Under the pieces are notes generated by a model, which was not told the origin of the DNA, made no database searches, and worked only from the letters and a program-made list of their open reading frames with translations. Position numbers and translations under genes: made by a program. A stretch of DNA of 64,000 bases. Source: Trypanosoma brucei (Eukaryota). The DNA is taken from assembly GCA_000002445.1 (NCBI GenBank), contig CP000069.1:1344001-1408000 (forward strand). The letters are read 5' to 3'. Below, piece after piece: positions 1 to 18,880 of this stretch; the first letter of the stretch is position 1; the number at the start of each line of letters is the position of its first letter.

Positions 1-593
1 CGCATGGACCCAATGGGGTCCCAACATTGGTATTAAAACCACTGTCAAACGACTATGTTGTCACCATCCGCTCCATGAAAGTAAAGCACTATTTACTTGT
101 TCGTAAGAAAAAGTCAGTTATAAGGAAAAAACTAATCCACATGCAAATCTGTGGCGCACCGCGACATTATAACATTCGCAAAAAACACGATATGGAAAAA
201 AACAATTAAGCAACAATATGAAACGGAGATATTATCGCAACATAACAGGAATCAAGTTTCTATCCGTCTCAAACCACTTCCACTCGCTTAAAAAAAGGTA
301 GAAAACCAAAAAGGATATGGGTAAAGAAAAGAAATGAAATAAAATTAACACACAACAACGAAAACAAATAATAATAAATAAAATTAATGAAACAACAACA
401 GCAAAAATGTAATGAAAAAAAAAAAATAAAAGTTTTCACCTTACTTTGCTCTTTTCCTCTCAATTCCTCTCCCTGTCGGATGTACCATTAGTTTAAAGCT
501 ACTTCGCGTATACACCTCAGTGTACCCCTATTTCGTTTGCTCTACTCCGCAAGGTTCTACATCAATCCTACCGCCCTTGTTTCGTGAAAGGTG

Positions 594-1787
594 ATGTCCG
601 TGCGCCAGATATTCTTCACGTCGGAGCATGTGAGTGAAGGTCACCCCGATAAACTATGCGATCAGGTGTCGGATGCCGTACTGGATGCATGCCTTGAGCA
701 GGACCCGCTCTCTAAGGTTGCATGCGAGACGTGCTCAAAGACGGGGATGGTGCTTGTGTTTGGTGAGATCACAACGAAGGCTGTGATTGACTACCAGAAG
801 GTCGTACGTGACACGGTTAAGGAGATCGGCTTCGATAACACTGAGAAGGGGTTGGACTACCGTTCACTGAACCTGCTTGTGGCCGTTGAGCAACAATCAC
901 CCGATATTTACCAGGGCCTCGGTGACTTTGGCGGGGAGAACCTCGGTGCTGGAGACCAGGGCATGATGTTTGGTTATGCGACGAATGAGACGGAGACACT
1001 AATGCCACTCTCTTACGAACTTGCGCGCGGTCTTGCAATGACATACAGCGAGTTGCGACGCAATGGTGGTCTTCCGTGGGCGCGCCCCGACGCTAAGACG
1101 CAAGTGACAGTGCAGTACGAATATGACACCCGCGGTGGCAAGCAGTTGCTGACACCTAAGCGAGTGGCTGTGATTCTTGTTTCTGCCCAGCATGACGACG
1201 GTGTGTCAAATGAAACCATCCGCGAGGACCTGGTGAAGAAGGTAATCAGCACCACCATTCCCGCGAAGTTCCTCGATGAGAACACCAAATATCACTTGAA
1301 CCCATCTGGGCGTTTCGTCATCGGTGGCCCACATGGTGACGCTGGGTTAACTGGTCGCAAGATAATTGTTGACACGTATGGCGGTTGGGGTGCCCATGGT
1401 GGTGGCGCGTTTTCTGGCAAGGATCCCTCGAAGGTGGACCGGTCGGCAGCGTATGCTGCTCGCTGGATTGCGAAGTCTCTGGTGGCCGCAGGTCTTGCAG
1501 ATCGGTGCCTTGTACAACTTTCGTACGCCATTGGAGTTGCGGAACCGCTCAATATCCATGTCGACACATATGGCACTGGTAAGCGCGATGACGAGTATAT
1601 ATTGGGTATTGTGCAGAAAAACTTCCGACTGCGCCCGTACGACATAATCAAGGAACTTGATCTTCGTCGGCCGATATACCGCCAGACTGCCTGTTTCGGG
1701 CACTTTGGGCGTGTGGACACGAACGGGAAGGGAGGATTCACGTGGGAGGTGCCCAAAACACTAGAGGGTCTTAGTGACGTGCAGTAG
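594..1787 (+). CDS. METK1: S-adenosylmethionine synthetase (methionine adenosyltransferase), array copy 1.
   Basis: 397-aa product carrying the MAT signatures GHPDK, GAGDQG and GGGAFSGKD(P/Y)[13 protein letters not shown], collinear with E. coli MetK and human MAT2A. The track ORF starts at GTG 591; the first ATG is 594. Confidence 0.93.
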
Positions 1788-2035
1788 TGTGTACTGCGCA
1801 CGAATAATCAGGCACACCTCCTTGCCCATCCTCACTGTTTGCGAGTAACTGCTCGCTTCCCGCCGAGTGGGTTCCTGTTGGTAACAACACCCGCCTTCGC
1901 TTATTTTTCGTTGTTACGTGATGTCATGTACTTGGCGATGTTGTGCATAAGGGAGTGGAGTAAGTAATAACAGTAGACAGGAGGTGGACGTTGCAATTAA
2001 ATTGTTTGACAAGTGTGAGGGTAGAGGGGGAAAGA

Positions 2036-2058
2036 ATATATATATATATATATATATA
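2036..2058. repeat. (AT)n microsatellite in the METK 3' spacer. Representative; it is present in every unit and its length varies between units by roughly 9-12 repeats.
   Basis: The atatatatat... run lies ~250 nt after each METK stop. Its length visibly differs between units, as does that of the poly(T) run. Confidence 0.85.
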
Positions 2059-2504
2059 ACATATACCTATTTATTATTTTTAGGTATGCTATTTCGTACA
2101 CTAACGCTGTACTTTAATTCCTGGTATTTCCCACATATTGTTTCTCGGATGCGGTTTGCTCCTCATTCTTTACCTTTTTTGTTTTCTTTCGTTTTTACTC
2201 CATCATATGTTACCTTGACTGTAAACGTGTTGTTGTAAGTACTGTGACCTGTTAGCGTTACGTTTCAACTTTTTTCCCCTGCCTTACTGGGAGGTAAGTG
2301 TGATAACGACAGCAAGTGGGTACCATTATGATTGTAATTGTAAGAAATATTATTTCTGTTACATCAACCTTTGTCATTTAACTGTCACTCACGTATGGTA
2401 AGTCCTACGGTCTGTCGCCGGGGCTTTGCTTACCGTTCGTTGCTCTATCCGCTGCTGCGCACATGTAGTGAAGTACCTCGTTGTAACTGTAGTAAATAGC
2501 TAAT

Positions 2505-2604
2505 CTCCTATGTCTCCTTATTATTGTCCTTCTTTCTTCTCTTCTCTTTTGTTTTTTTTTTACCCTCAATTCCTCTCCCTGTCGGATGTACCATTAGTTT
2601 AAAG
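2505..2604 (+). promoter_or_regulatory. Polypyrimidine tract plus AG dinucleotides: the putative SL trans-splice acceptor region for the downstream METK copy, and probably also the element that directs polyadenylation of the upstream copy. This is a representative; the same element recurs once per unit at ~4611, 6715, 8821, 10925, 13030, 15134 and 17238, with a shorter version at 435-476 before copy 1.
   Basis: A ~78-nt C/T tract (ctccttattattgtccttctttcttctcttctcttttg, a T10-13 run, accctcaattcctctccct) is followed by AG at 2596-2597 and 2603-2604, about 100 nt upstream of the ATG. Confidence 0.6.
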
Positions 2605-2699
2605 CTACTTCGCGTATACACCTCAGTGTACCCCTATTTCGTTTGCTCTACTCCGCAAGGTTCTACATCAATCCTACCGCCCTTGTTTCGTGAAAGGTG

Positions 2700-3893
2700 A
2701 TGTCCGTGCGCCAGATATTCTTCACGTCGGAGCATGTGAGTGAAGGTCACCCCGATAAACTATGCGATCAGGTGTCGGATGCCGTACTGGATGCATGCCT
2801 TGAGCAGGACCCGCTCTCTAAGGTTGCATGCGAGACGTGCTCAAAGACGGGGATGGTGCTTGTGTTTGGTGAGATCACAACGAAGGCTGTGATTGACTAC
2901 CAGAAGGTCGTACGTGACACGGTTAAGGAGATCGGCTTCGATAACACTGAGAAGGGGTTGGACTACCGTTCACTGAACCTGCTTGTGGCCGTTGAGCAAC
3001 AATCACCCGATATTTACCAGGGCCTCGGTGACTTTGGCGGGGAGAACCTCGGTGCTGGAGACCAGGGCATGATGTTTGGTTATGCGACGAATGAGACGGA
3101 GACACTAATGCCACTCTCTTACGAACTTGCGCGCGGTCTTGCAATGACATACAGCGAGTTGCGACGCAATGGTGGTCTTCCGTGGGCGCGCCCCGACGCT
3201 AAGACGCAAGTGACAGTGCAGTACGAATATGACACCCGCGGTGGCAAGCAGTTGCTGACACCTAAGCGAGTGGCTGTGATTCTTGTTTCTGCCCAGCATG
3301 ACGACGGTGTGTCAAATGAAACCATCCGCGAGGACCTGGTGAAGAAGGTAATCAGCACCACCATTCCCGCGAAGTTCCTCGATGAGAACACCAAATATCA
3401 CTTGAACCCATCTGGGCGTTTTGTCATCGGTGGCCCACATGGTGACGCTGGGTTAACTGGTCGCAAGATAATTGTTGACACGTATGGCGGTTGGGGTGCC
3501 CATGGTGGTGGCGCGTTTTCTGGCAAGGATCCCTCGAAGGTGGACCGGTCGGCAGCGTATGCTGCTCGCTGGATTGCAAAGTCTCTGGTGGCCGCAGGTC
3601 TTGCAGATCGGTGCCTTGTACAACTTTCGTACGCCATTGGAGTTGCGGAACCGCTCAATATCCATGTCGACACATATGGCACTGGTAAGCGCGATGACGA
3701 GTATATATTGGGTATTGTGCAGAAAAACTTCCGACTGCGCCCGTACGACATAATCAAGGAACTTGATCTTCGTCGGCCGATATACCGCCAGACTGCCTGT
3801 TTCGGGCACTTTGGGCGTGTGGACACGAACGGGAAGGGAGGATTCACGTGGGAGGTGCCCAAAACACTAGAGGGTCTTAGTGACGTGCAGTAG
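2700..3893 (+). CDS. METK1: S-adenosylmethionine synthetase, array copy 2. It carries two synonymous SNPs (TTT at ~3420, GCA at ~3577).
   Basis: Protein identical to copy 1. The nucleotide differences show up only as changes in the overlapping alternative-frame ORFs. Confidence 0.93.
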
Positions 3894-4805
3894 TGTGTAC
3901 TGCGCACGAATAATCAGGCACACCTCCTTGCCCATCCTCACTGTTTGCGAGTAACTGCTCGCTTCCCGCCGAGTGGGTTCCTGTTGGTAACAACACCCGC
4001 CTTCGCTTATTTTTCGTTGTTACGTGATGTCATGTACTTGGCGATGTTGTGCATAAGGGAGTGGAGTAAGTAATAACAGTAGACAGGAGGTGGACGTTGC
4101 AATTAAATTGTTTGACAAGTGTGAGGGTAGAGGGGGAAAGAATATATATATATATATATATAACATATACCTATTTATTATTTTTAGGTATGCTATTTCG
4201 TACACTAACGCTGTACTTTAATTCCTGGTATTTCCCACATATTGTTTCTCGGATGCGGTTTGCTCCTCATTCTTTACCTTTTTTGTTTTCTTTCGTTTTT
4301 ACTCCATCATATGTTACCTTGACTGTAAACGTGTTGTTGTAAGTACTGTGACCTGTTAGCGTTACGTTTCAACTTTTTTCCCCTGCCTTACTGGGAGGTA
4401 AGTGTGATAACGACAGCAAGTGGGTACCATTATGATTGTAATTGTAAGAAATATTATTTCTGTTACATCAACCTTTGTCATTTAACTGTCACTCACGTAT
4501 GGTAAGTCCTACGGTCTGTCGCCGGGGCTTTGCTTACCGTTCGTTGCTCTATCCGCTGCTGCGCACATGTGGTGAAGTACCTCGTTGTAACTGTAGTAAA
4601 TAGCTAATCTCCTATGTCTCCTTATTATTGTCCTTCTTTCTTCTCTTCTCTTTTGTTTTTTTTTTTTACCCTCAATTCCTCTCCCTGTCGGATGTACCAT
4701 TAGTTTAAAGCTACTTCGCGTATACACCTCAGTGTACCCCTATTTCGTTTGCTCTACTCCGCAAGGTTCTACATCAATCCTACCGCCCTTGTTTCGTGAA
4801 AGGTG

Positions 4806-5999
4806 ATGTCCGTGCGCCAGATATTCTTCACGTCGGAGCATGTGAGTGAAGGTCACCCCGATAAACTATGCGATCAGGTGTCGGATGCCGTACTGGATGC
4901 ATGCCTTGAGCAGGACCCGCTCTCTAAGGTTGCATGCGAGACGTGCTCAAAGACGGGGATGGTGCTTGTGTTTGGTGAGATCACAACGAAGGCTGTGATT
5001 GACTACCAGAAGGTCGTACGTGACACGGTTAAGGAGATCGGCTTCGATAACACTGAGAAGGGGTTGGACTACCGTTCACTGAACCTGCTTGTGGCCGTTG
5101 AGCAACAATCACCCGATATTTACCAGGGCCTCGGTGACTTTGGCGGGGAGAACCTCGGTGCTGGAGACCAGGGCATGATGTTTGGTTATGCGACGAATGA
5201 GACGGAGACACTAATGCCACTCTCTTACGAACTTGCGCGCGGTCTTGCAATGACATACAGCGAGTTGCGACGCAATGGTGGTCTTCCGTGGGCGCGCCCC
5301 GACGCTAAGACGCAAGTGACAGTGCAGTACGAATATGACACCCGCGGTGGCAAGCAGTTGCTGACACCTAAGCGAGTGGCTGTGATTCTTGTTTCTGCCC
5401 AGCATGACGACGGTGTGTCAAATGAAACCATCCGCGAGGACCTGGTGAAGAAGGTAATCAGCACCACCATTCCCGCGAAGTTCCTCGATGAGAACACCAA
5501 ATATCACTTGAACCCATCTGGGCGTTTCGTCATCGGTGGCCCACATGGTGACGCTGGGTTAACTGGTCGCAAGATAATTGTCGACACGTATGGCGGTTGG
5601 GGTGCCCATGGTGGTGGCGCGTTTTCTGGCAAGGATCCCTCGAAGGTGGACCGGTCGGCAGCGTATGCTGCTCGCTGGATTGCGAAGTCTCTGGTGGCCG
5701 CAGGTCTTGCAGATCGGTGCCTTGTACAACTTTCGTACGCCATTGGAGTTGCGGAACCGCTCAATATCCATGTCGACACATATGGCACTGGTAAGCGCGA
5801 TGACGAGTATATATTGGGTATTGTGCAGAAAAACTTCCGACTGCGCCCGTACGACATAATCAAGGAACTTGATCTTCGTCGGCCGATATACCGCCAGACT
5901 GCCTGTTTCGGGCACTTTGGGCGTGTGGACACGAACGGGAAGGGAGGATTCACGTGGGAGGTGCCCAAAACACTAGAGGGTCTTAGTGACGTGCAGTAG
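4806..5999 (+). CDS. METK1: S-adenosylmethionine synthetase, array copy 3. Synonymous GTT to GTC change at ~5583.
   Basis: Protein identical to the consensus. The same SNP is present in copy 5. Confidence 0.93.
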
Positions 6000-6909
6000 T
6001 GTGTACTGCGCACGAATAATCAGGCACACCTCCTTGCCCATCCTCACTGTTTGCGAGTAACTGCTCGCTTCCCGCCGAGTGGGTTCCTGTTGGTAACAAC
6101 ACCCGCCTTCGCTTATTTTTCGTTGTTACGTGATGTCATGTACTTGGCGATGTTGTGCATAAGGGAGTGGAGTAAGTAATAACAGTAGACAGGAGGTGGA
6201 CGTTGCAATTAAATTGTTTGACAAGTGTGAGGGTAGAGGGGGAAAGAATATATATATATATATATAACATATACCTATTTATTATTTTTAGGTATGCTAT
6301 TTCGTACACTAACGCTGTACTTTAATTCCTGGTATTTCCCACATATTGTTTCTCGGATGCGGTTTGCTCCTCATTCTTTACCTTTTTTGTTTTCTTTCGT
6401 TTTTACTCCATCATATGTTACCTTGACTGTAAACGTGTTGTTGTAAGTACTGTGACCTGTTAGCGTTACGTTTCAACTTTTTTCCCCTGCCTTACTGGGA
6501 GGTAAGTGTGATAACGACAGCAAGTGGGTACCATTATGATTGTAATTGTAAGAAATATTATTTCTGTTACATCAACCTTTGTCATTTAACTGTCACTCAC
6601 GTATGGTAAGTCCTACGGTCTGTCGCCGGGGCTTTGCTTACCGTTCGTTGCTCTATCCGCTGCTGCGCACATGTAGTGAAGTACCTCGTTGTAACTGTAG
6701 TAAATAGCTAATCTCCTATGTCTCCTTATTATTGTCCTTCTTTCTTCTCTTCTCTTTTGTTTTTTTTTTTTACCCTCAATTCCTCTCCCTGTCGGATGTA
6801 CCATTAGTTTAAAGCTACTTCGCGTATACACCTCAGTGTACCCCTATTTCGTTTGCTCTACTCCGCAAGGTTCTACATCAATCCTACCGCCCTTGTTTCG
6901 TGAAAGGTG

Positions 6910-8103
6910 ATGTCCGTGCGCCAGATATTCTTCACGTCGGAGCATGTGAGTGAAGGTCACCCCGATAAACTATGCGATCAGGTGTCGGATGCCGTACTGG
7001 ATGCATGCCTTGAGCAGGACCCGCTCTCTAAGGTTGCATGCGAGACGTGCTCAAAGACGGGGATGGTGCTTGTGTTTGGTGAGATCACAACGAAGGCTGT
7101 GATTGACTACCAGAAGGTCGTACGTGACACGGTTAAGGAGATCGGCTTCGATAACACTGAGAAGGGGTTGGACTACCGTTCACTGAACCTGCTTGTGGCC
7201 GTTGAGCAACAATCACCCGATATTTACCAGGGCCTCGGTGACTTTGGCGGGGAGAACCTCGGTGCTGGAGACCAGGGCATGATGTTTGGTTATGCGACGA
7301 ATGAGACGGAGACACTAATGCCACTCTCTTACGAACTTGCGCGCGGTCTTGCAATGACATACAGCGAGTTGCGACGCAATGGTGGTCTTCCGTGGGCGCG
7401 CCCCGACGCTAAGACGCAAGTGACAGTGCAGTACGAATATGACACCCGCGGTGGCAAGCAGTTGCTGACACCTAAGCGAGTGGCTGTGATTCTTGTTTCT
7501 GCCCAGCTTGACGACGGTGTGTCAAATGAAACCATCCGCGAGGACCTGGTGAAGAAGGTAATCAGCACCACCATTCCCGCGAAGTTCCTCGATGAGAACA
7601 CCAAATATCACTTGAACCCATCTGGGCGTTTCGTCATCGGTGGCCCACATGGTGACGCTGGGTTAACTGGTCGCAAGATAATTGTTGACACGTATGGCGG
7701 TTGGGGTGCCCATGGTGGTGGCGCGTTTTCTGGCAAGGATCCCTCGAAGGTGGACCGGTCGGCAGCGTATGCTGCTCGCTGGATTGCGAAGTCTCTGGTG
7801 GCCGCAGGTCTTGCAGATCGGTGCCTTGTACAACTTTCGTACGCCATTGGAGTTGCGGAACCGCTCAATATCCATGTCGACACATATGGCACTGGTAAGC
7901 GCGATGACGAGTATATATTGGGTATTGTGCAGAAAAACTTCCGACTGCGCCCGTACGACATAATCAAGGAACTTGATCTTCGTCGGCCGATATACCGCCA
8001 GACTGCCTGTTTCGGGCACTTTGGGCGTGTGGACACGAACGGGAAGGGAGGATTCACGTGGGAGGTGCCCAAAACACTAGAGGGTCTTAGTGACGTGCAG
8101 TAG
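6910..8103 (+). CDS. METK1: S-adenosylmethionine synthetase, array copy 4. Nonsynonymous variant His200 to Leu (CAT to CTT at 7507-7509).
   Basis: The ORF-track protein reads VSAQLDDGV where the other copies read VSAQHDDGV. Confidence 0.9.
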
Positions 8104-9015
8104 TGTGTACTGCGCACGAATAATCAGGCACACCTCCTTGCCCATCCTCACTGTTTGCGAGTAACTGCTCGCTTCCCGCCGAGTGGGTTCCTGTTGGTAA
8201 CAACACCCGCCTTCGCTTATTTTTCGTTGTTACGTGATGTCATGTACTTGGCGATGTTGTGCATAAGGGAGTGGAGTAAGTAATAACAGTAGACAGGAGG
8301 TGGACGTTGCAATTAAATTGTTTGACAAGTGTGAGGGTAGAGGGGGAAAGAATATATATATATATATATATAACATATACCTATTTATTATTTTTAGGTA
8401 TGCTATTTCGTACACTAACGCTGTACTTTAATTCCTGGTATTTCCCACATATTGTTTCTCGGATGCGGTTTGCTCCTCATTCTTTACCTTTTTTGTTTTC
8501 TTTCGTTTTTACTCCATCATATGTTACCTTGACTGTAAACGTGTTGTTGTAAGTACTGTGACCTGTTAGCGTTACGTTTCAACTTTTTTCCCCTGCCTTA
8601 CTGGGAGGTAAGTGTGATAACGACAGCAAGTGGGTACCATTATGATTGTAATTGTAAGAAATATTATTTCTGTTACATCAACCTTTGTCATTTAACTGTC
8701 ACTCACGTATGGTAAGTCCTACGGTCTGTCGCCGGGGCTTTGCTTACCGTTCGTTGCTCTATCCGCTGCTGCGCACATGTGGTGAAGTACCTCGTTGTAA
8801 CTGTAGTAAATAGCTAATCTCCTATGTCTCCTTATTATTGTCCTTCTTTCTTCTCTTCTCTTTTGTTTTTTTTTTTTACCCTCAATTCCTCTCCCTGTCG
8901 GATGTACCATTAGTTTAAAGCTACTTCGCGTATACACCTCAGTGTACCCCTATTTCGTTTGCTCTACTCCGCAAGGTTCTACATCAATCCTACCGCCCTT
9001 GTTTCGTGAAAGGTG

Positions 9016-10209
9016 ATGTCCGTGCGCCAGATATTCTTCACGTCGGAGCATGTGAGTGAAGGTCACCCCGATAAACTATGCGATCAGGTGTCGGATGCCG
9101 TACTGGATGCATGCCTTGAGCAGGACCCGCTCTCTAAGGTTGCATGCGAGACGTGCTCAAAGACGGGGATGGTGCTTGTGTTTGGTGAGATCACAACGAA
9201 GGCTGTGATTGACTACCAGAAGGTCGTACGTGACACGGTTAAGGAGATCGGCTTCGATAACACTGAGAAGGGGTTGGACTACCGTTCACTGAACCTGCTT
9301 GTGGCCGTTGAGCAGCAATCACCCGATATTTACCAGGGCCTCGGTGACTTTGGCGGGGAGAACCTCGGTGCTGGAGACCAGGGCATGATGTTTGGTTATG
9401 CGACGAATGAGACGGAGACACTAATGCCACTCTCTTACGAACTTGCGCGCGGTCTTGCAATGACATACAGCGAGTTGCGACGCAATGGTGGTCTTCCGTG
9501 GGCGCGCCCCGACGCTAAGACGCAAGTGACAGTGCAGTACGAATATGACACCCGCGGTGGCAAGCAGTTGCTGACACCTAAGCGAGTGGCTGTGATTCTT
9601 GTTTCTGCCCAGCATGACGACGGTGTGTCAAATGAAACCATCCGCGAGGACCTGGTGAAGAAGGTAATCAGCACCACCATTCCCGCGAAGTTCCTCGATG
9701 AGAACACCAAATATCACTTGAACCCATCTGGGCGTTTCGTCATCGGTGGCCCACATGGTGACGCTGGGTTAACTGGTCGCAAGATAATTGTCGACACGTA
9801 TGGCGGTTGGGGTGCCCATGGTGGTGGCGCGTTTTCTGGCAAGGATCCCTCGAAGGTGGACCGGTCGGCAGCGTATGCTGCTCGCTGGATTGCGAAGTCT
9901 CTGGTGGCCGCAGGTCTTGCAGATCGGTGCCTTGTACAACTTTCGTACGCCATTGGAGTTGCGGAACCGCTCAATATCCATGTCGACACATATGGCACTG
10001 GTAAGCGCGATGACGAGTATATATTGGGTATTGTGCAGAAAAACTTCCGACTGCGCCCGTACGACATAATCAAGGAACTTGATCTTCGTCGGCCGATATA
10101 CCGCCAGACTGCCTGTTTCGGGCACTTTGGGCGTGTGGACACGAACGGGAAGGGAGGATTCACGTGGGAGGTGCCCAAAACACTAGAGGGTCTTAGTGAC
10201 GTGCAGTAG
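9016..10209 (+). CDS. METK1: S-adenosylmethionine synthetase, array copy 5. Two synonymous SNPs (CAG at ~9313, GTC at ~9783).
   Basis: Protein identical to the consensus. Confidence 0.93.
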
Positions 10210-11121
10210 TGTGTACTGCGCACGAATAATCAGGCACACCTCCTTGCCCATCCTCACTGTTTGCGAGTAACTGCTCGCTTCCCGCCGAGTGGGTTCCTGT
10301 TGGTAACAACACCCGCCTTCGCTTATTTTTCGTTGTTACGTGATGTCATGTACTTGGCGATGTTGTGCATAAGGGAGTGGAGTAAGTAATAACAGTAGAC
10401 AGGAGGTGGACGTTGCAATTAAATTGTTTGACAAGTGTGAGGGTAGAGGGGGAAAGAATATATATATATATATATATAACATATACCTATTTATTATTTT
10501 TAGGTATGCTATTTCGTACACTAACGCTGTACTTTAATTCCTGGTATTTCCCACATATTGTTTCTCGGATGCGGTTTGCTCCTCATTCTTTACCTTTTTT
10601 GTTTTCTTTCGTTTTTACTCCATCATATGTTACCTTGACTGTAAACGTGTTGTTGTAAGTACTGTGACCTGTTAGCGTTACGTTTCAACTTTTTTCCCCT
10701 GCCTTACTGGGAGGTAAGTGTGATAACGACAGCAAGTGGGTACCATTATGATTGTAATTGTAAGAAATATTATTTCTGTTACATCAACCTTTGTCATTTA
10801 ACTGTCACTCACGTATGGTAAGTCCTACGGTCTGTCGCCGGGGCTTTGCTTACCGTTCGTTGCTCTATCCGCTGCTGCGCACATGTAGTGAAGTACCTCG
10901 TTGTAACTGTAGTAAATAGCTAATCTCCTATGTCTCCTTATTATTGTCCTTCTTTCTTCTCTTCTCTTTTGTTTTTTTTTTTTACCCTCAATTCCTCTCC
11001 CTGTCGGATGTACCATTAGTTTAAAGCTACTTCGCGTATACACCTCAGTGTACCCCTATTTCGTTTGCTCTACTCCGCAAGGTTCTACATCAATCCTACC
11101 GCCCTTGTTTCGTGAAAGGTG

Positions 11122-12315
11122 ATGTCCGTGCGCCAGATATTCTTCACGTCGGAGCATGTGAGTGAAGGTCACCCCGATAAACTATGCGATCAGGTGTCGG
11201 ATGCCGTACTGGATGCATGCCTTGAGCAGGACCCGCTCTCTAAGGTTGCATGCGAGACGTGCTCAAAGACGGGGATGGTGCTTGTGTTTGGTGAGATCAC
11301 AACGAAGGCTGTGATTGACTACCAGAAGGTCGTACGTGACACGGTTAAGGAGATCGGCTTCGATAACACTGAGAAGGGGTTGGACTACCGTTCACTGAAC
11401 CTGCTTGTGGCCGTTGAGCAACAATCACCCGATATTTACCAGGGCCTCGGTGACTTTGGCGGGGAGAACCTCGGTGCTGGAGACCAGGGCATGATGTTTG
11501 GTTATGCGACGAATGAGACGGAGACACTAATGCCACTCTCTTACGAACTTGCGCGCGGTCTTGCAATGACATACAGCGAGTTGCGACGCAATGGTGGTCT
11601 TCCGTGGGCGCGCCCCGACGCTAAGACGCAAGTGACAGTGCAGTACGAATATGACACCCGCGGTGGCAAGCAGTTGCTGACACCTAAGCGAGTGGCTGTG
11701 ATTCTTGTTTCTGCCCAGCATGACGACGGTGTGTCAAATGGAACCATCCGCGAGGACCTGGTGAAGAAGGTAATCAGCACCACCATTCCCGCGAAGTTCC
11801 TCGATGAGAACACCAAATATCACTTGAACCCATCTGGGCGTTTCGTCATCGGTGGCCCACATGGTGACGCTGGGTTAACTGGTCGCAAGATAATTGTTGA
11901 CACGTATGGCGGTTGGGGTGCCCATGGTGGTGGCGCGTTTTCTGGCAAGGATCCCTCGAAGGTGGACCGGTCGGCAGCGTATGCTGCTCGCTGGATTGCG
12001 AAGTCTCTGGTGGCCGCAGGTCTTGCAGATCGGTGCCTTGTACAACTTTCGTACGCCATTGGAGTTGCGGAACCGCTCAATATCCATGTCGACACATATG
12101 GCACTGGTAAGCGCGATGACGAGTATATATTGGGTATTGTGCAGAAAAACTTCCGACTGCGCCCGTACGACATAATCAAGGAACTTGATCTTCGTCGGCC
12201 GATATACCGCCAGACTGCCTGTTTCGGGCACTTTGGGCGTGTGGACACGAACGGGAAGGGAGGATTCACGTGGGAGGTGCCCAAAACACTAGAGGGTCTT
12301 AGTGACGTGCAGTAG
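11122..12315 (+). CDS. METK1: S-adenosylmethionine synthetase, array copy 6. Nonsynonymous variant Glu207 to Gly (GAA to GGA at 11740-11742).
   Basis: The ORF-track protein reads VSNGTIRED where the other copies read VSNETIRED. Confidence 0.9.
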
Positions 12316-13226
12316 TGTGTACTGCGCACGAATAATCAGGCACACCTCCTTGCCCATCCTCACTGTTTGCGAGTAACTGCTCGCTTCCCGCCGAGTGGGT
12401 TCCTGTTGGTAACAACACCCGCCTTCGCTTATTTTTCGTTGTTACGTGATGTCATGTACTTGGCGATGTTGTGCATAAGGGAGTGGAGTAAGTAATAACA
12501 GTAGACAGGAGGTGGACGTTGCAATTAAATTGTTTGACAAGTGTGAGGGTAGAGGGGGAAAGAATATATATATATATATATATAACATATACCTATTTAT
12601 TATTTTTAGGTATGCTATTTCGTACACTAACGCTGTACTTTAATTCCTGGTATTTCCCACATATTGTTTCTCGGATGCGGTTTGCTCCTCATTCTTTACC
12701 TTTTTTGTTTTCTTTCGTTTTTACTCCATCATATGTTACCTTGACTGTAAACGTGTTGTTGTAAGTACTGTGACCTGTTAGCGTTACGTTTCAACTTTTT
12801 TCCCCTGCCTTACTGGGAGGTAAGTGTGATAACGACAGCAAGTGGGTACCATTATGATTGTAATTGTAAGAAATATTATTTCTGTTACATCAACCTTTGT
12901 CATTTAACTGTCACTCACGTATGGTAAGTCCTACGGTCTGTCGCCGGGGCTTTGCTTACCGTTCGTTGCTCTATCCGCTGCTGCGCACATGTGGTGAAGT
13001 ACCTCGTTGTAACTGTAGTAAATAGCTAATCTCCTATGTCTCCTTATTATTGTCCTTCTTTCTTCTCTTCTCTTTTGTTTTTTTTTTTACCCTCAATTCC
13101 TCTCCCTGTCGGATGTACCATTAGTTTAAAGCTACTTCGCGTATACACCTCAGTGTACCCCTATTTCGTTTGCTCTACTCCGCAAGGTTCTACATCAATC
13201 CTACCGCCCTTGTTTCGTGAAAGGTG

Positions 13227-14420
13227 ATGTCCGTGCGCCAGATATTCTTCACGTCGGAGCATGTGAGTGAAGGTCACCCCGATAAACTATGCGATCAGGT
13301 GTCGGATGCCGTACTGGATGCATGCCTTGAGCAGGACCCGCTCTCTAAGGTTGCATGCGAGACGTGCTCAAAGACGGGGATGGTGCTTGTGTTTGGTGAG
13401 ATCACAACGAAGGCTGTGATTGACTACCAGAAGGTCGTACGTGACACGGTTAAGGAGATCGGCTTCGATAACACTGAGAAGGGGTTGGACTACCGTTCAC
13501 TGAACCTGCTTGTGGCCGTTGAGCAACAATCACCCGATATTTACCAGGGCCTCGGTGACTTTGGCGGGGAGAACCTCGGTGCTGGAGACCAGGGCATGAT
13601 GTTTGGTTATGCGACGAATGAGACGGAGACACTAATGCCACTCTCTTACGAACTTGCGCGCGGTCTTGCAATGACATACAGCGAGTTGCGACGCAATGGT
13701 GGTCTTCCGTGGGCGCGCCCCGACGCTAAGACGCAAGTGACAGTGCAGTACGAATATGACACCCGCGGTGGCAAGCAGTTGCTGACACCTAAGCGAGTGG
13801 CTGTGATTCTTGTTTCTGCCCAGCATGACGACGGTGTGTCAAATGAAACCATCCGCGAGGACCTGGTGAAGAAGGTAATCAGCACCACCATTCCCGCGAA
13901 GTTCCTCGATGAGAACACCAAATATCACTTGAACCCATCTGGGCGTTTCGTCATCGGTGGCCCACATGGTGACGCTGGGTTAACTGGTCGCAAGATAATT
14001 GTTGACACGTATGGCGGTTGGGGTGCCCATGGTGGTGGCGCGTTTTCTGGCAAGGATCCCTCGAAGGTGGACCGGTCGGCAGCGTATGCTGCTCGCTGGA
14101 TTGCGAAGTCTCTGGTGGCCGCAGGTCTTGCAGATCGGTGCCTTGTACAACTTTCGTACGCCATTGGAGTTGCGGAACCGCTCAATATCCATGTCGACAC
14201 ATATGGCACTGGTAAGCGCGATGACGAGTATATATTGGGTATTGTGCAGAAAAACTTCCGACTGCGCCCGTACGACATAATCAAGGAACTTGATCTTCGT
14301 CGGCCGATATACCGCCAGACTGCCTGTTTCGGGCACTTTGGGCGTGTGGACACGAACGGGAAGGGAGGATTCACGTGGGAGGTGCCCAAAACACTAGAGG
14401 GTCTTAGTGACGTGCAGTAG
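13227..14420 (+). CDS. METK1: S-adenosylmethionine synthetase, array copy 7.
   Basis: Protein identical to the consensus. Confidence 0.93.
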
Positions 14421-15330
14421 TGTGTACTGCGCACGAATAATCAGGCACACCTCCTTGCCCATCCTCACTGTTTGCGAGTAACTGCTCGCTTCCCGCCGAG
14501 TGGGTTCCTGTTGGTAACAACACCCGCCTTCGCTTATTTTTCGTTGTTACGTGATGTCATGTACTTGGCGATGTTGTGCATAAGGGAGTGGAGTAAGTAA
14601 TAACAGTAGACAGGAGGTGGACGTTGCAATTAAATTGTTTGACAAGTGTGAGGGTAGAGGGGGAAAGAATATATATATATATATATAACATATACCTATT
14701 TATTATTTTTAGGTATGCTATTTCGTACACTAACGCTGTACTTTAATTCCTGGTATTTCCCACATATTGTTTCTCGGATGCGGTTTGCTCCTCATTCTTT
14801 ACCTTTTTTGTTTTCTTTCGTTTTTACTCCATCATATGTTACCTTGACTGTAAACGTGTTGTTGTAAGTACTGTGACCTGTTAGCGTTACGTTTCAACTT
14901 TTTTCCCCTGCCTTACTGGGAGGTAAGTGTGATAACGACAGCAAGTGGGTACCATTATGATTGTAATTGTAAGAAATATTATTTCTGTTACATCAACCTT
15001 TGTCATTTAACTGTCACTCACGTATGGTAAGTCCTACGGTCTGTCGCCGGGGCTTTGCTTACCGTTCGTTGCTCTATCCGCTGCTGCGCACATGTGGTGA
15101 AGTACCTCGTTGTAACTGTAGTAAATAGCTAATCTCCTATGTCTCCTTATTATTGTCCTTCTTTCTTCTCTTCTCTTTTGTTTTTTTTTTTTACCCTCAA
15201 TTCCTCTCCCTGTCGGATGTACCATTAGTTTAAAGCTACTTCGCGTATACACCTCAGTGTACCCCTATTTCGTTTGCTCTACTCCGCAAGGTTCTACATC
15301 AATCCTACCGCCCTTGTTTCGTGAAAGGTG

Positions 15331-16524
15331 ATGTCCGTGCGCCAGATATTCTTCACGTCGGAGCATGTGAGTGAAGGTCACCCCGATAAACTATGCGATC
15401 AGGTGTCGGATGCCGTACTGGATGCATGCCTTGAGCAGGACCCGCTCTCTAAGGTTGCATGCGAGACGTGCTCAAAGACGGGGATGGTGCTTGTGTTTGG
15501 TGAGATCACAACGAAGGCTGTGATTGACTACCAGAAGGTCGTACGTGACACGGTTAAGGAGATCGGCTTCGATAACACTGAGAAGGGGTTGGACTACCGT
15601 TCACTGAACCTGCTTGTGGCCGTTGAGCAACAATCACCCGATATTTACCAGGGCCTCGGTGACTTTGGCGGGGAGAACCTCGGTGCTGGAGACCAGGGCA
15701 TGATGTTTGGTTATGCGACGAATGAGACGGAGACACTAATGCCACTCTCTTACGAACTTGCGCGCGGTCTTGCAATGACATACAGCGAGTTGCGACGCAA
15801 TGGTGGTCTTCCGTGGGCGCGCCCCGACGCTAAGACGCAAGTGACAGTGCAGTACGAATATGACACCCGCGGTGGCAAGCAGTTGCTGACACCTAAGCGA
15901 GTGGCTGTGATTCTTGTTTCTGCCCAGCATGACGACGGTGTGTCAAATGAAACCATCCGCGAGGACCTGGTGAAGAAGGTAATCAGCACCACCATTCCCG
16001 CGAAGTTCCTCGATGAGAACACCAAATATCACTTGAACCCATCTGGGCGTTTCGTCATCGGTGGCCCACATGGTGACGCTGGGTTAACTGGTCGCAAGAT
16101 AATTGTTGACACGTATGGCGGTTGGGGTGCCCATGGTGGTGGCGCGTTTTCTGGCAAGGATCCCTCGAAGGTGGACCGGTCGGCAGCGTATGCTGCTCGC
16201 TGGATTGCGAAGTCTCTGGTGGCCGCAGGTCTTGCAGATCGGTGCCTTGTACAACTTTCGTACGCCATTGGAGTTGCGGAACCGCTCAATATCCATGTCG
16301 ACACATATGGCACTGGTAAGCGCGATGACGAGTATATATTGGGTATTGTGCAGAAAAACTTCCGACTGCGCCCGTACGACATAATCAAGGAACTTGATCT
16401 TCGTCGGCCGATATACCGCCAGACTGCCTGTTTCGGGCACTTTGGGCGTGTGGACACGAACGGGAAGGGAGGATTCACGTGGGAGGTGCCCAAAACACTA
16501 GAGGGTCTTAGTGACGTGCAGTAG
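15331..16524 (+). CDS. METK1: S-adenosylmethionine synthetase, array copy 8.
   Basis: Protein identical to the consensus. Confidence 0.93.
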
Positions 16525-17434
16525 TGTGTACTGCGCACGAATAATCAGGCACACCTCCTTGCCCATCCTCACTGTTTGCGAGTAACTGCTCGCTTCCCGC
16601 CGAGTGGGTTCCTGTTGGTAACAACACCCGCCTTCGCTTATTTTTCGTTGTTACGTGATGTCATGTACTTGGCGATGTTGTGCATAAGGGAGTGGAGTAA
16701 GTAATAACAGTAGACAGGAGGTGGACGTTGCAATTAAATTGTTTGACAAGTGTGAGGGTAGAGGGGGAAAGAATATATATATATATATATAACATATACC
16801 TATTTATTATTTTTAGGTATGCTATTTCGTACACTAACGCTGTACTTTAATTCCTGGTATTTCCCACATATTGTTTCTCGGATGCGGTTTGCTCCTCATT
16901 CTTTACCTTTTTTGTTTTCTTTCGTTTTTACTCCATCATATGTTACCTTGACTGTAAACGTGTTGTTGTAAGTACTGTGACCTGTTAGCGTTACGTTTCA
17001 ACTTTTTTCCCCTGCCTTACTGGGAGGTAAGTGTGATAACGACAGCAAGTGGGTACCATTATGATTGTAATTGTAAGAAATATTATTTCTGTTACATCAA
17101 CCTTTGTCATTTAACTGTCACTCACGTATGGTAAGTCCTACGGTCTGTCGCCGGGGCTTTGCTTACCGTTCGTTGCTCTATCCGCTGCTGCGCACATGTA
17201 GTGAAGTACCTCGTTGTAACTGTAGTAAATAGCTAATCTCCTATGTCTCCTTATTATTGTCCTTCTTTCTTCTCATCTCTTTTGTTTTTTTTTTTTACCC
17301 TCAATTCCTCTCCCTGTCGGATGTACCATTAGTTTAAAGCTACTTCGCGTATACACCTCAGTGTACCCCTATTTCGTTTGCTCTACTCCGCAAGGTTCTA
17401 CATCAATCCTACCGCCCTTGTTTCGTGAAAGGTG

Positions 17435-18628
17435 ATGTCCGTGCGCCAGATATTCTTCACGTCGGAGCATGTGAGTGAAGGTCACCCCGATAAACTATGC
17501 GATCAGGTGTCGGATGCCGTACTGGATGCATGCCTTGAGCAGGACCCGCTCTCTAAGGTTGCATGCGAGACGTGCTCAAAGACGGGGATGGTGCTTGTGT
17601 TTGGTGAGATCACAACGAAGGCTGTGATTGACTACCAGAAGGTCGTACGTGACACGGTTAAGGAGATCGGCTTCGATAACACTGAGAAGGGGTTGGACTA
17701 CCGTTCACTGAACCTGCTTGTGGCCGTTGAGCAACAATCACCCGATATTTACCAGGGCCTCGGTGACTTTGGCGGGGAGAACCTCGGTGCTGGAGACCAG
17801 GGCATGATGTTTGGTTATGCGACGAATGAGACGGAGACACTAATGCCACTCTCTTACGAACTTGCGCGCGGTCTTGCAATGACATACAGCGAGTTGCGAC
17901 GCAATGGTGGTCTTCCGTGGGCGCGCCCCGACGCTAAGACGCAAGTGACAGTGCAGTACGAATATGACACCCGCGGTGGCAAGCAGTTGCTGACACCTAA
18001 GCGAGTGGCTGTGATTCTTGTTTCTGCCCAGCATGACGACGGTGTGTCAAATGAAACCATCCGCGAGGACCTGGTGAAGAAGGTAATCAGCACCACCATT
18101 CCCGCGAAGTTCCTCGATGAGAACACCAAATATCACTTGAACCCATCTGGGCGTTTCGTCATCGGTGGCCCACATGGTGACGCTGGGTTAACTGGTCGCA
18201 AGATAATTGTTGACACGTATGGCGGTTGGGGTGCCCATGGTGGTGGCGCGTTTTCTGGCAAGGATCCCTCGAAGGTGGACCGGTCGGCAGCGTATGCTGC
18301 TCGCTGGATTGCGAAGTCTCTGGTGGCCGCAGGTCTTGCAGATCGGTGCCTTGTACAACTTTCGTACGCCATTGGAGTTGCGGAACCGCTCAATATCCAT
18401 GTCGACACATATGGCACTGGTAAGCGCGATGACGAGTATATATTGGGTATTGTGCAGAAAAACTTCCGACTGCGCCCGTACGACATAATCAAGGAACTTG
18501 ATCTTCGTCGGCCGATATACCGCCAGACTGCCTGTTTCGGGCACTTTGGGCGTGTGGACACGAACGGGAAGGGAGGATTCACGTGGGAGGTGCCCAAAAC
18601 ACTAGAGGGTCTTAGTGACGTGCAGTAG
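17435..18628 (+). CDS. METK1: S-adenosylmethionine synthetase, array copy 9 (the last).
   Basis: Protein identical to the consensus. The spacer after it is truncated at 18727, where unique sequence begins. Confidence 0.93.
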
Positions 18629-18780
18629 TGTGTACTGCGCACGAATAATCAGGCACACCTCCTTGCCCATCCTCACTGTTTGCGAGTAACTGCTCGCTTC
18701 CCGCCGAGTGGGTTCCTGTTGGTAACAACTTTATTTGTTATATAGGAGAGGGCATTGTTTTTTAAATTAATATTTTTTTT

Positions 18781-18880
18781 GTTAATATATATATATATAT
18801 ATATATATATTTTAAATTTTTTGTCTCTATGTTTTTTTTTCTGCTGTTATAATATATATATATATATATATGTATAATTT
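18781..18880. repeat. Two (AT)n microsatellites and T-rich low complexity immediately flanking the 3' end of the array.
   Basis: tatatatatatatatatatatat at ~18785-18810 and again at ~18853-18878. Confidence 0.8.

Follow-up and report, generated by a model that had tools for sequence, protein, structure and literature searches.

A histidine-to-leucine change at a nearly invariant position in one of nine tandem METK genes of Trypanosoma brucei TREU927

One of the nine tandem genes for S-adenosylmethionine synthetase (METK/TbAdoMetSyn) on chromosome 6 of Trypanosoma brucei brucei TREU927 encodes leucine in place of a histidine that is nearly invariant among methionine adenosyltransferases (MATs). 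The change is in the fourth gene of the array, whose coding sequence (6910..8103, + strand, 397 amino acids plus stop) lies within the 64,000-nucleotide stretch of DNA analyzed here (the window; CP000069.1, positions 1,344,001 to 1,408,000). The predicted H200L protein is identical to AAZ12045.1 / XP_845604.1 / UniProt Q586F9, and from its place in the array the gene is presumably Tb927.6.4870. On balance, we lean toward a true copy-specific mutation which, judged from sequence comparison, would be young and probably damaging.

The METK array of chromosome 6

The window originates from chromosome 6 of T. brucei brucei TREU927 and holds a nine-copy array. A 397-amino acid open reading frame (ORF) is repeated head-to-tail nine times on the + strand within the first 19 kb, with a period of 2104-2106 bp, and the ORF list, unit lengths, and repeat boundaries place the nine-unit METK/TbAdoMetSyn tandem array at 459..18729 (+ strand). 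The repeat begins ∼135 bp before the first ATG and ends ∼101 bp past the last stop codon. By exact-sequence look-up, the array proteins match the TREU927 records AAZ12042-50 / XP_845601-9, and the contig bearing these METK protein records is 1,618,915 bp long. This locus is the TbAdoMetSyn/METK1 array of Patel et al. 2018 (PMC6221367), comprising nine tandem copies on chromosome 6 that are designated there Tb927.6.4840-Tb927.6.4920. Its 3′ neighbors, which include RF-1, Mago nashi, and a protein kinase, are syntenic with those of other T. brucei-group assemblies.

The units are nearly identical, intergenic DNA included: across eight full ∼2.1 kb units and the ninth coding sequence there are 8 SNP sites and 2 sites of microsatellite-length variation. 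With the coding sequence of copy 1 (594..1787, + strand) taken as the array consensus, copies 7, 8, and 9 have the same coding DNA, and copies 2, 3, and 5 differ by synonymous changes only, at 3422, 3578, 5582, 9315, and 9792. Seven of the nine copies encode one and the same protein; H200L is the sole amino acid difference in copy 4 and E207G the sole one in copy 6. The latter results from an A-to-G change at 11741, which gives GGA (Gly) at codon 207 (11740..11742, + strand) in place of the GAA (Glu) found elsewhere, and the E207G protein corresponds to AAZ12047.1 / XP_845606.1 / Q586G1. An initial reading of this DNA made from the sequence alone (hereafter the sequence-only reading) had held that the array tolerates essentially no amino acid change; this is true of the seven identical proteins, but the E207G singleton of copy 6 had been missed. 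The catalytic and signature motifs of the family, GHPDK (residues 16-20), GAGDQG (118-123), PDAK (165-168), and GGGAFSGKD (269-277), are the same in all nine copies.

Codon 200 of copy 4

In copy 4, codon 200 (7507..7509, + strand) is CTT (Leu), whereas the eight other copies have CAT (His). The changed base is at 7508, where an A-to-T transversion gives H200L, and the 41-mer around codon 200 is the same in the eight other copies. The sequence-only reading had reported CTT at this codon of copy 4, and its numbering and motif were right. The base change abolishes the CATG tetranucleotide at codon 200 of copy 4, which is an NlaIII restriction site. The accompanying remark that an ATG is removed from the opposite strand was also accurate, and because CATG is palindromic, the ATG is in fact gone on both strands. 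The T-allele strings of copy 4 are ...GCCCAGCTTGACGAC... in the genomic/RNA form and ...CCCAGCTTGACG... in the RNA-seq form; if the variant is real, the loss of CATG and an altered tryptic peptide would together make a copy-specific marker with which to follow expression from the array or recombination in it. Copy 4 is flanked by the same sequences as the other units except in microsatellite length, and neither the UTRs nor the intergenic regions have diverged.

The copy 4 protein scores 140.1, 136.9, and 222.4 bits against the N-terminal, middle, and C-terminal Pfam domains of the family (cut-offs 33.1, 29, and 25) and 558.7 bits against TIGR01034 (cut-off 309.4). By homology (PF00438, PF02772, and PF02773, with TIGR01034), copy 4 thus remains a predicted member of the methionine adenosyltransferase family. 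Human MAT1A and MAT2A and E. coli MetK, for which solved structures include 2OBV, 2P02, 5A1I, 1RG9, and 7LL3, can be aligned over their full length with the T. brucei protein (phmmer E-values of ∼1e-159 to mammalian MATs and ∼1e-135 to E. coli MetK) and retain the S-x-Q-H motif. The counterpart of T. brucei His200 is His209 in MAT2A, His210 in rat MAT1A, and His190 in E. coli (His189 when the initiator Met is not counted). Where the human and E. coli enzymes have His at S-x-Q-H, T. brucei copy 4 has Leu, a replacement that calls the full activity predicted for this copy into question. Recombinant consensus TbAdoMetSyn from T. brucei is active in vitro (PMC6221367).

Conservation of His200

Conservation was assessed with two alignments, one of 119 close homologs (kinetoplastids and other euglenozoans) and one of 150 representatives of 50%-identity clusters, drawn from a library-wide HMMER search with 23,467 hits. 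Position 200 is His in 119 of 119 close homologs and in 141 of the 145 diverse representatives with a residue there (97%). The exceptions have Gln (P0151), Ser (P0174), or Thr (P0245), or are a frameshifted fragment (P0156). Leu was found in none of the 119 close homologs, and neither Leu nor any other hydrophobic residue in the 145 diverse representatives. In the ranking of positions by conservation His200 is 26th of 397, level with the catalytic Asp166 and Lys168 (Asp163 and Lys165 in the E. coli enzyme). The sequence-only reading had called this His universally conserved and had put forward a real multiple alignment as a check; its conservation is upheld by both alignments and Leu never occurs, but the residue is nearly invariant, not universal. 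The motif given there was likewise borne out, being ISVQHDEEV in MAT2A, ISVQHNEDI in rat MAT1A, and VLSTQHSEE in E. coli MetK.

The sequences that lack His are of uneven quality. P0151 is degenerate there and breaks 10 of 49 highly conserved positions. In two of the three non-His sequences, one of them the degenerate P0151, Asn236 is missing as well (Fisher p = 0.003). The other, P0174, is a full-length MAT homolog that combines His-to-Ser with Asn236-to-Lys; Asn236 is 96% conserved and lies in the N-P-S/T-G-R-F adenine-pocket loop. This single clean case gives a weak hint of an interaction between His200 and Asn236. Literature searches retrieved no role for the aligned His (MAT2A His209, MAT1A His210, E. 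coli His189/190); the residue goes unmentioned in a rat MAT I interface paper and in a human MAT1A/2A structure paper, and the gene identifier Tb927.6.4870 is absent from the searchable main text of the literature. Because it varies so rarely, this His would be a sensible residue to mutate in any MAT.

Predicted effect of the substitution

H200L costs 4.6 bits against PF02772 and 5.7 bits against TIGR01034, as compared with 2.2 and 2.0 bits, respectively, for E207G. When all 2,455 single-nucleotide missense changes were ranked with a profile from the diverse representatives, H200L fell in the worst 12% when entropy weighting was applied and in the worst 8% when it was not, and E207G was close to the median. 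In an AlphaFold2 model (pTM 0.84; pLDDT 90 or more over residues 131-230), strand 163-178, which includes Asp166 and Lys168, is followed by a six-residue turn and then by strand 185-200, which ends at His200; a short loop leads from there to helix 206-221, with Glu207 in its first turn. This predicted strand-turn-strand layout would place His200 near Asp166 and Lys168 and, if the hairpin register is regular, Ser197 would face Asp166 and His200 would face the W-A-R-P-D segment. The location proposed by the sequence-only reading, in the central domain near the substrate-binding region, holds as regards the domain, as His200 is within PF02772; proximity to the substrate is plausible from the modeled strand layout.

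Origin of the variant allele

His200 is encoded in GCA_003543875.1, in T. b. gambiense DAL972, in T. equiperdum GCA_001457755.2, and in the Logan assemblies of ERR034315 and ERR79291xx, and the H200L change was not present in any other T. brucei-group sequence retrieved (DAL972, GCA_003543875.1, T. equiperdum, and four Logan assemblies). Because His is found in all other T. brucei-group sequences examined, the T allele at 7508 is, by this comparison, the derived one. The same applies throughout the array: in comparison with four other T. brucei-group assemblies, it is the rarer allele that is derived at each polymorphic TREU927 site, 7508 included.

All nine TREU927 copies have T at nt 600 (CAT) and G at nt 656 (Ser219), whereas the copies read in DAL972, GCA_003543875.1, and the Logan assemblies have C at nt 600 (CAC) and A at nt 656 (Asn219); T. 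equiperdum is of the TREU927 type at both. Since strain-specific substitutions are common to all nine copies, the METK array evolves in concert and is homogenized. CTT is one step from CAT and two from CAC, so H200L would postdate the last homogenization and, by this argument, is young. The suggestion made in the sequence-only reading of a recent mutation that gene conversion has not yet erased is coherent with both the derived T allele and the homogenized array. Within codon 200, the base changed in H200L is immediately followed by the one that differs synonymously (CAC/CAT) between lineages.

The other assemblies differ in how they represent this locus. In GCA_003543875.1 (retrieved locus L001) there are four METK copies, the last of which (16307-17500) has a 1-bp deletion. 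In DAL972 (L002), METK is at 494-1688, with N runs at 2326 and 8275 and clipped copies, and a 414-amino acid ‘low quality’ METK model contains a spurious 17-amino acid insertion. In the T. equiperdum assembly the array is collapsed to a single copy. Copy number and per-copy variants taken from these three assemblies are not reliable.

Mutation or reference error

The T at 7508 could instead be absent from the parasite genome, the product of a base-calling or consensus error, a misassembly, or a mutation of the BAC or plasmid in E. coli. We regard this as a serious possibility, at clearly less than even probability. By exact protein look-up, the H200L record is confined to the TREU927 reference, a Sanger/BAC sequence of 2005, and no contig encoding the protein was returned; within the array the variant is a singleton. 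These facts are as expected of an error, as is the choice of a site that selection almost never allows to vary. Against an error, finished Sanger sequence normally has an error rate well below one in 10 kb, and the surrounding bases, GCCCAGCATGACGAC, form neither a homopolymer nor a simple repeat. The change at 7508 is one of two transversions among the eight array SNP changes, the other six being transitions, which again leans toward an error; however, the remaining singletons in the array are synonymous transitions and resemble real mutations. Misassembly would be conceivable within a 19-kb array whose units are ∼99.95% identical, and the frameshifts, N gaps, and 17-amino acid insertion in other assemblies attest that it is hard to assemble. 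Patel et al. (PMC6221367) describe ‘18 identical copies’, though for strain 427, whereas among the nine proteins predicted from the TREU927 reference, two (those of copies 4 and 6) are not identical to the rest.

The position of E207G bears on both explanations. Like H200L it is a singleton, there is no third amino acid change in the array, and the two are 21 nt apart in unit coordinates, although in separate copies; the chance of two random sites lying so near is ∼3.5%, and the pair could mark an error-prone read stretch. Across the T. brucei group the variable sites of the METK coding sequence are nt 300, 599, 600, 603, 620, 656, 723, 777, and 879, with four of the nine in 22 nt and five of the nine in 58 nt (permutation p ∼0.002, a post hoc value), and the amino acid differences in the protein body are at positions 200, 207, and 219, that is, at the strand end and in helix 206-221. 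The variation at nt 600, 603, and 656 is certainly real, being fixed in nine copies or present in independent Illumina-based assemblies. Because these sites fall in the same stretch, the codon 200-219 cluster may reflect a mutation-prone stretch or a tolerant surface rather than a region of error-prone reads, and the clustering may equally be explained without sequencing error.

Taken together, the variants in the array look like products of biology and not like random noise, because the coding sites comprise four synonymous and two non-synonymous changes, two sites are shared between copies, and six of the eight changes are transitions. By chance, ∼70-76% of coding changes would be expected to be non-synonymous, and the probability of two or fewer of six being so is 0.03-0.07. 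If the T at 7508 does prove to be an error, the gene model XP_845604.1 / Q586F9 needs a one-base fix.

With regard to the shared alleles, a derived synonymous C at nt 777 (5582 and 9792) is common to copies 3 and 5, and units 2, 4, 6, and 7 have a derived intergenic G (4571, 8781, 12993, and 15096), so that this site reads A G A G A G G A along the units. This alternation suggests expansion in blocks of two units or patchy gene conversion.

A distinct isoform

A true change might also have been maintained because copy 4 encodes a functionally distinct MAT subunit, a regulatory or kinetically different isoform and nascent ‘prozyme’-like pseudoenzyme, that co-assembles with the products of the other copies; it might then bear on the two kinetic forms of AdoMet synthetase reported from bloodstream T. 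brucei. We consider this very improbable. Several aspects of MAT and trypanosomatid biology lend it some appeal. In MAT, a dimer of dimers, both subunits contribute residues to active sites located at the dimer interface (PMC3793261), and a variant subunit could therefore influence the subunits with which it pairs; inactive paralogs serve as regulators in trypanosomatids, the AdoMetDC prozyme being one (PMC6221367); two activity isoforms were described by Yarlett et al. 1993, as cited in a review (PMC6027508); and the amino acid differences at 200, 207, and 219 lie within 20 residues. However, a single base in 2.1 kb sets copy 4 apart, its UTRs and intergenic regions have not diverged, and Leu occurs at position 200 in no MAT sampled. 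A maintained isoform should, moreover, be common to strains and resist homogenization, yet DAL972, GCA_003543875.1, T. equiperdum, and the four Logan assemblies all lack the change. The functionally distinct isoform offered in the sequence-only reading thus found no backing, given the one-base difference, the ordinary flanks, and the lack of the change in any other T. brucei-group sequence.

The AdoMetDC prozyme (Tb927.6.4470) belongs to the same pathway neighborhood and is an impaired paralog that serves as a partner subunit (PMC6221367). It is, however, old, strongly diverged, and conserved across species, whereas METK copy 4 is one base from its sisters, is strain-specific, and has its known catalytic motifs intact, and so does not qualify as prozyme-like. 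Least probable of all, in our estimation, is that copy 4 genuinely carries H200L, is expressed, has been retained, and tunes AdoMet synthesis through mixed dimers or tetramers, for example by way of kinetics or product inhibition. Were that so, a pseudoenzyme-type regulator would have been caught at birth in a tandem array, and the cluster of variation over codons 200-219 would reflect selection on that surface.

Proposed history and significance

Returning to a young, probably damaging mutation, we propose that H200L arose in copy 4 after the last homogenization of the array and persists since enzyme is supplied by the eight wild-type copies (seventeen in the diploid genome). Because its flanking sequences are the same, copy 4 would be expressed like its neighbors, that is, transcribed, trans-spliced, and translated within the polycistron. 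Its product is expected to be a destabilized or catalytically weakened subunit, because a hydrophobic residue would occupy a nearly invariant polar site in a strand hairpinned to the strand with Asp166 and Lys168. With a dosage of 1/9 and random assembly, ∼11% of subunits would be mutant and ∼21% of dimers would include at least one of them; with a dosage of 1/18, ∼11% of dimers would carry a defective subunit. An 80% RNAi knock-down of TbAdoMetSyn leads to growth arrest (PMC6221367), and because so large a reduction was required, the cost of H200L is likely to be small. The allele would then be effectively nearly neutral and drift, to be lost or, less likely, to spread through gene conversion or unequal crossing-over.

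The dominant hypermethioninemia caused by MAT1A Arg264His (PMC7271947) is a precedent for a single missense subunit impairing an oligomeric MAT in which subunits share active sites. Arg264 is a known dimer-interface, triphosphate-binding residue and the mutant is present at 1/2 dosage, whereas H200L of copy 4 is present at 1/9 at most.

Both the locus and the variant protein can already be found in public databases, and the biology is nothing out of the ordinary: polymorphism among the copies of an array that evolves in concert. If the mutation is real, the nine METK genes of TREU927 are not all identical, contrary to the usual assumption, and the array is a small textbook case of tandem copies protecting a probably damaging change at a near-invariant residue until gene conversion erases or spreads it.

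Other features of the array

Upstream of copy 1 the window is unique sequence (1-458), and from 18730 onward the distal 3′ flank of copy 9 is unique as well, probably providing a different 3′ UTR; regulation of copy 9 could therefore differ from that of copies 1-8. An intergenic (AT)n microsatellite and a poly-T tract (∼2036-2060 and 2552-2565, with equivalents in each unit) vary in length among units, which accounts for the unit lengths of 2104-2106 bp, and a separate (AT)13 run lies beyond the last copy at 18785-18810. Each METK copy also contains a 169-amino acid antisense ORF (1292-1801, 3398-3907, and so on, − strand), which recurs as a mechanical by-product of the repetition of the same coding sequence.
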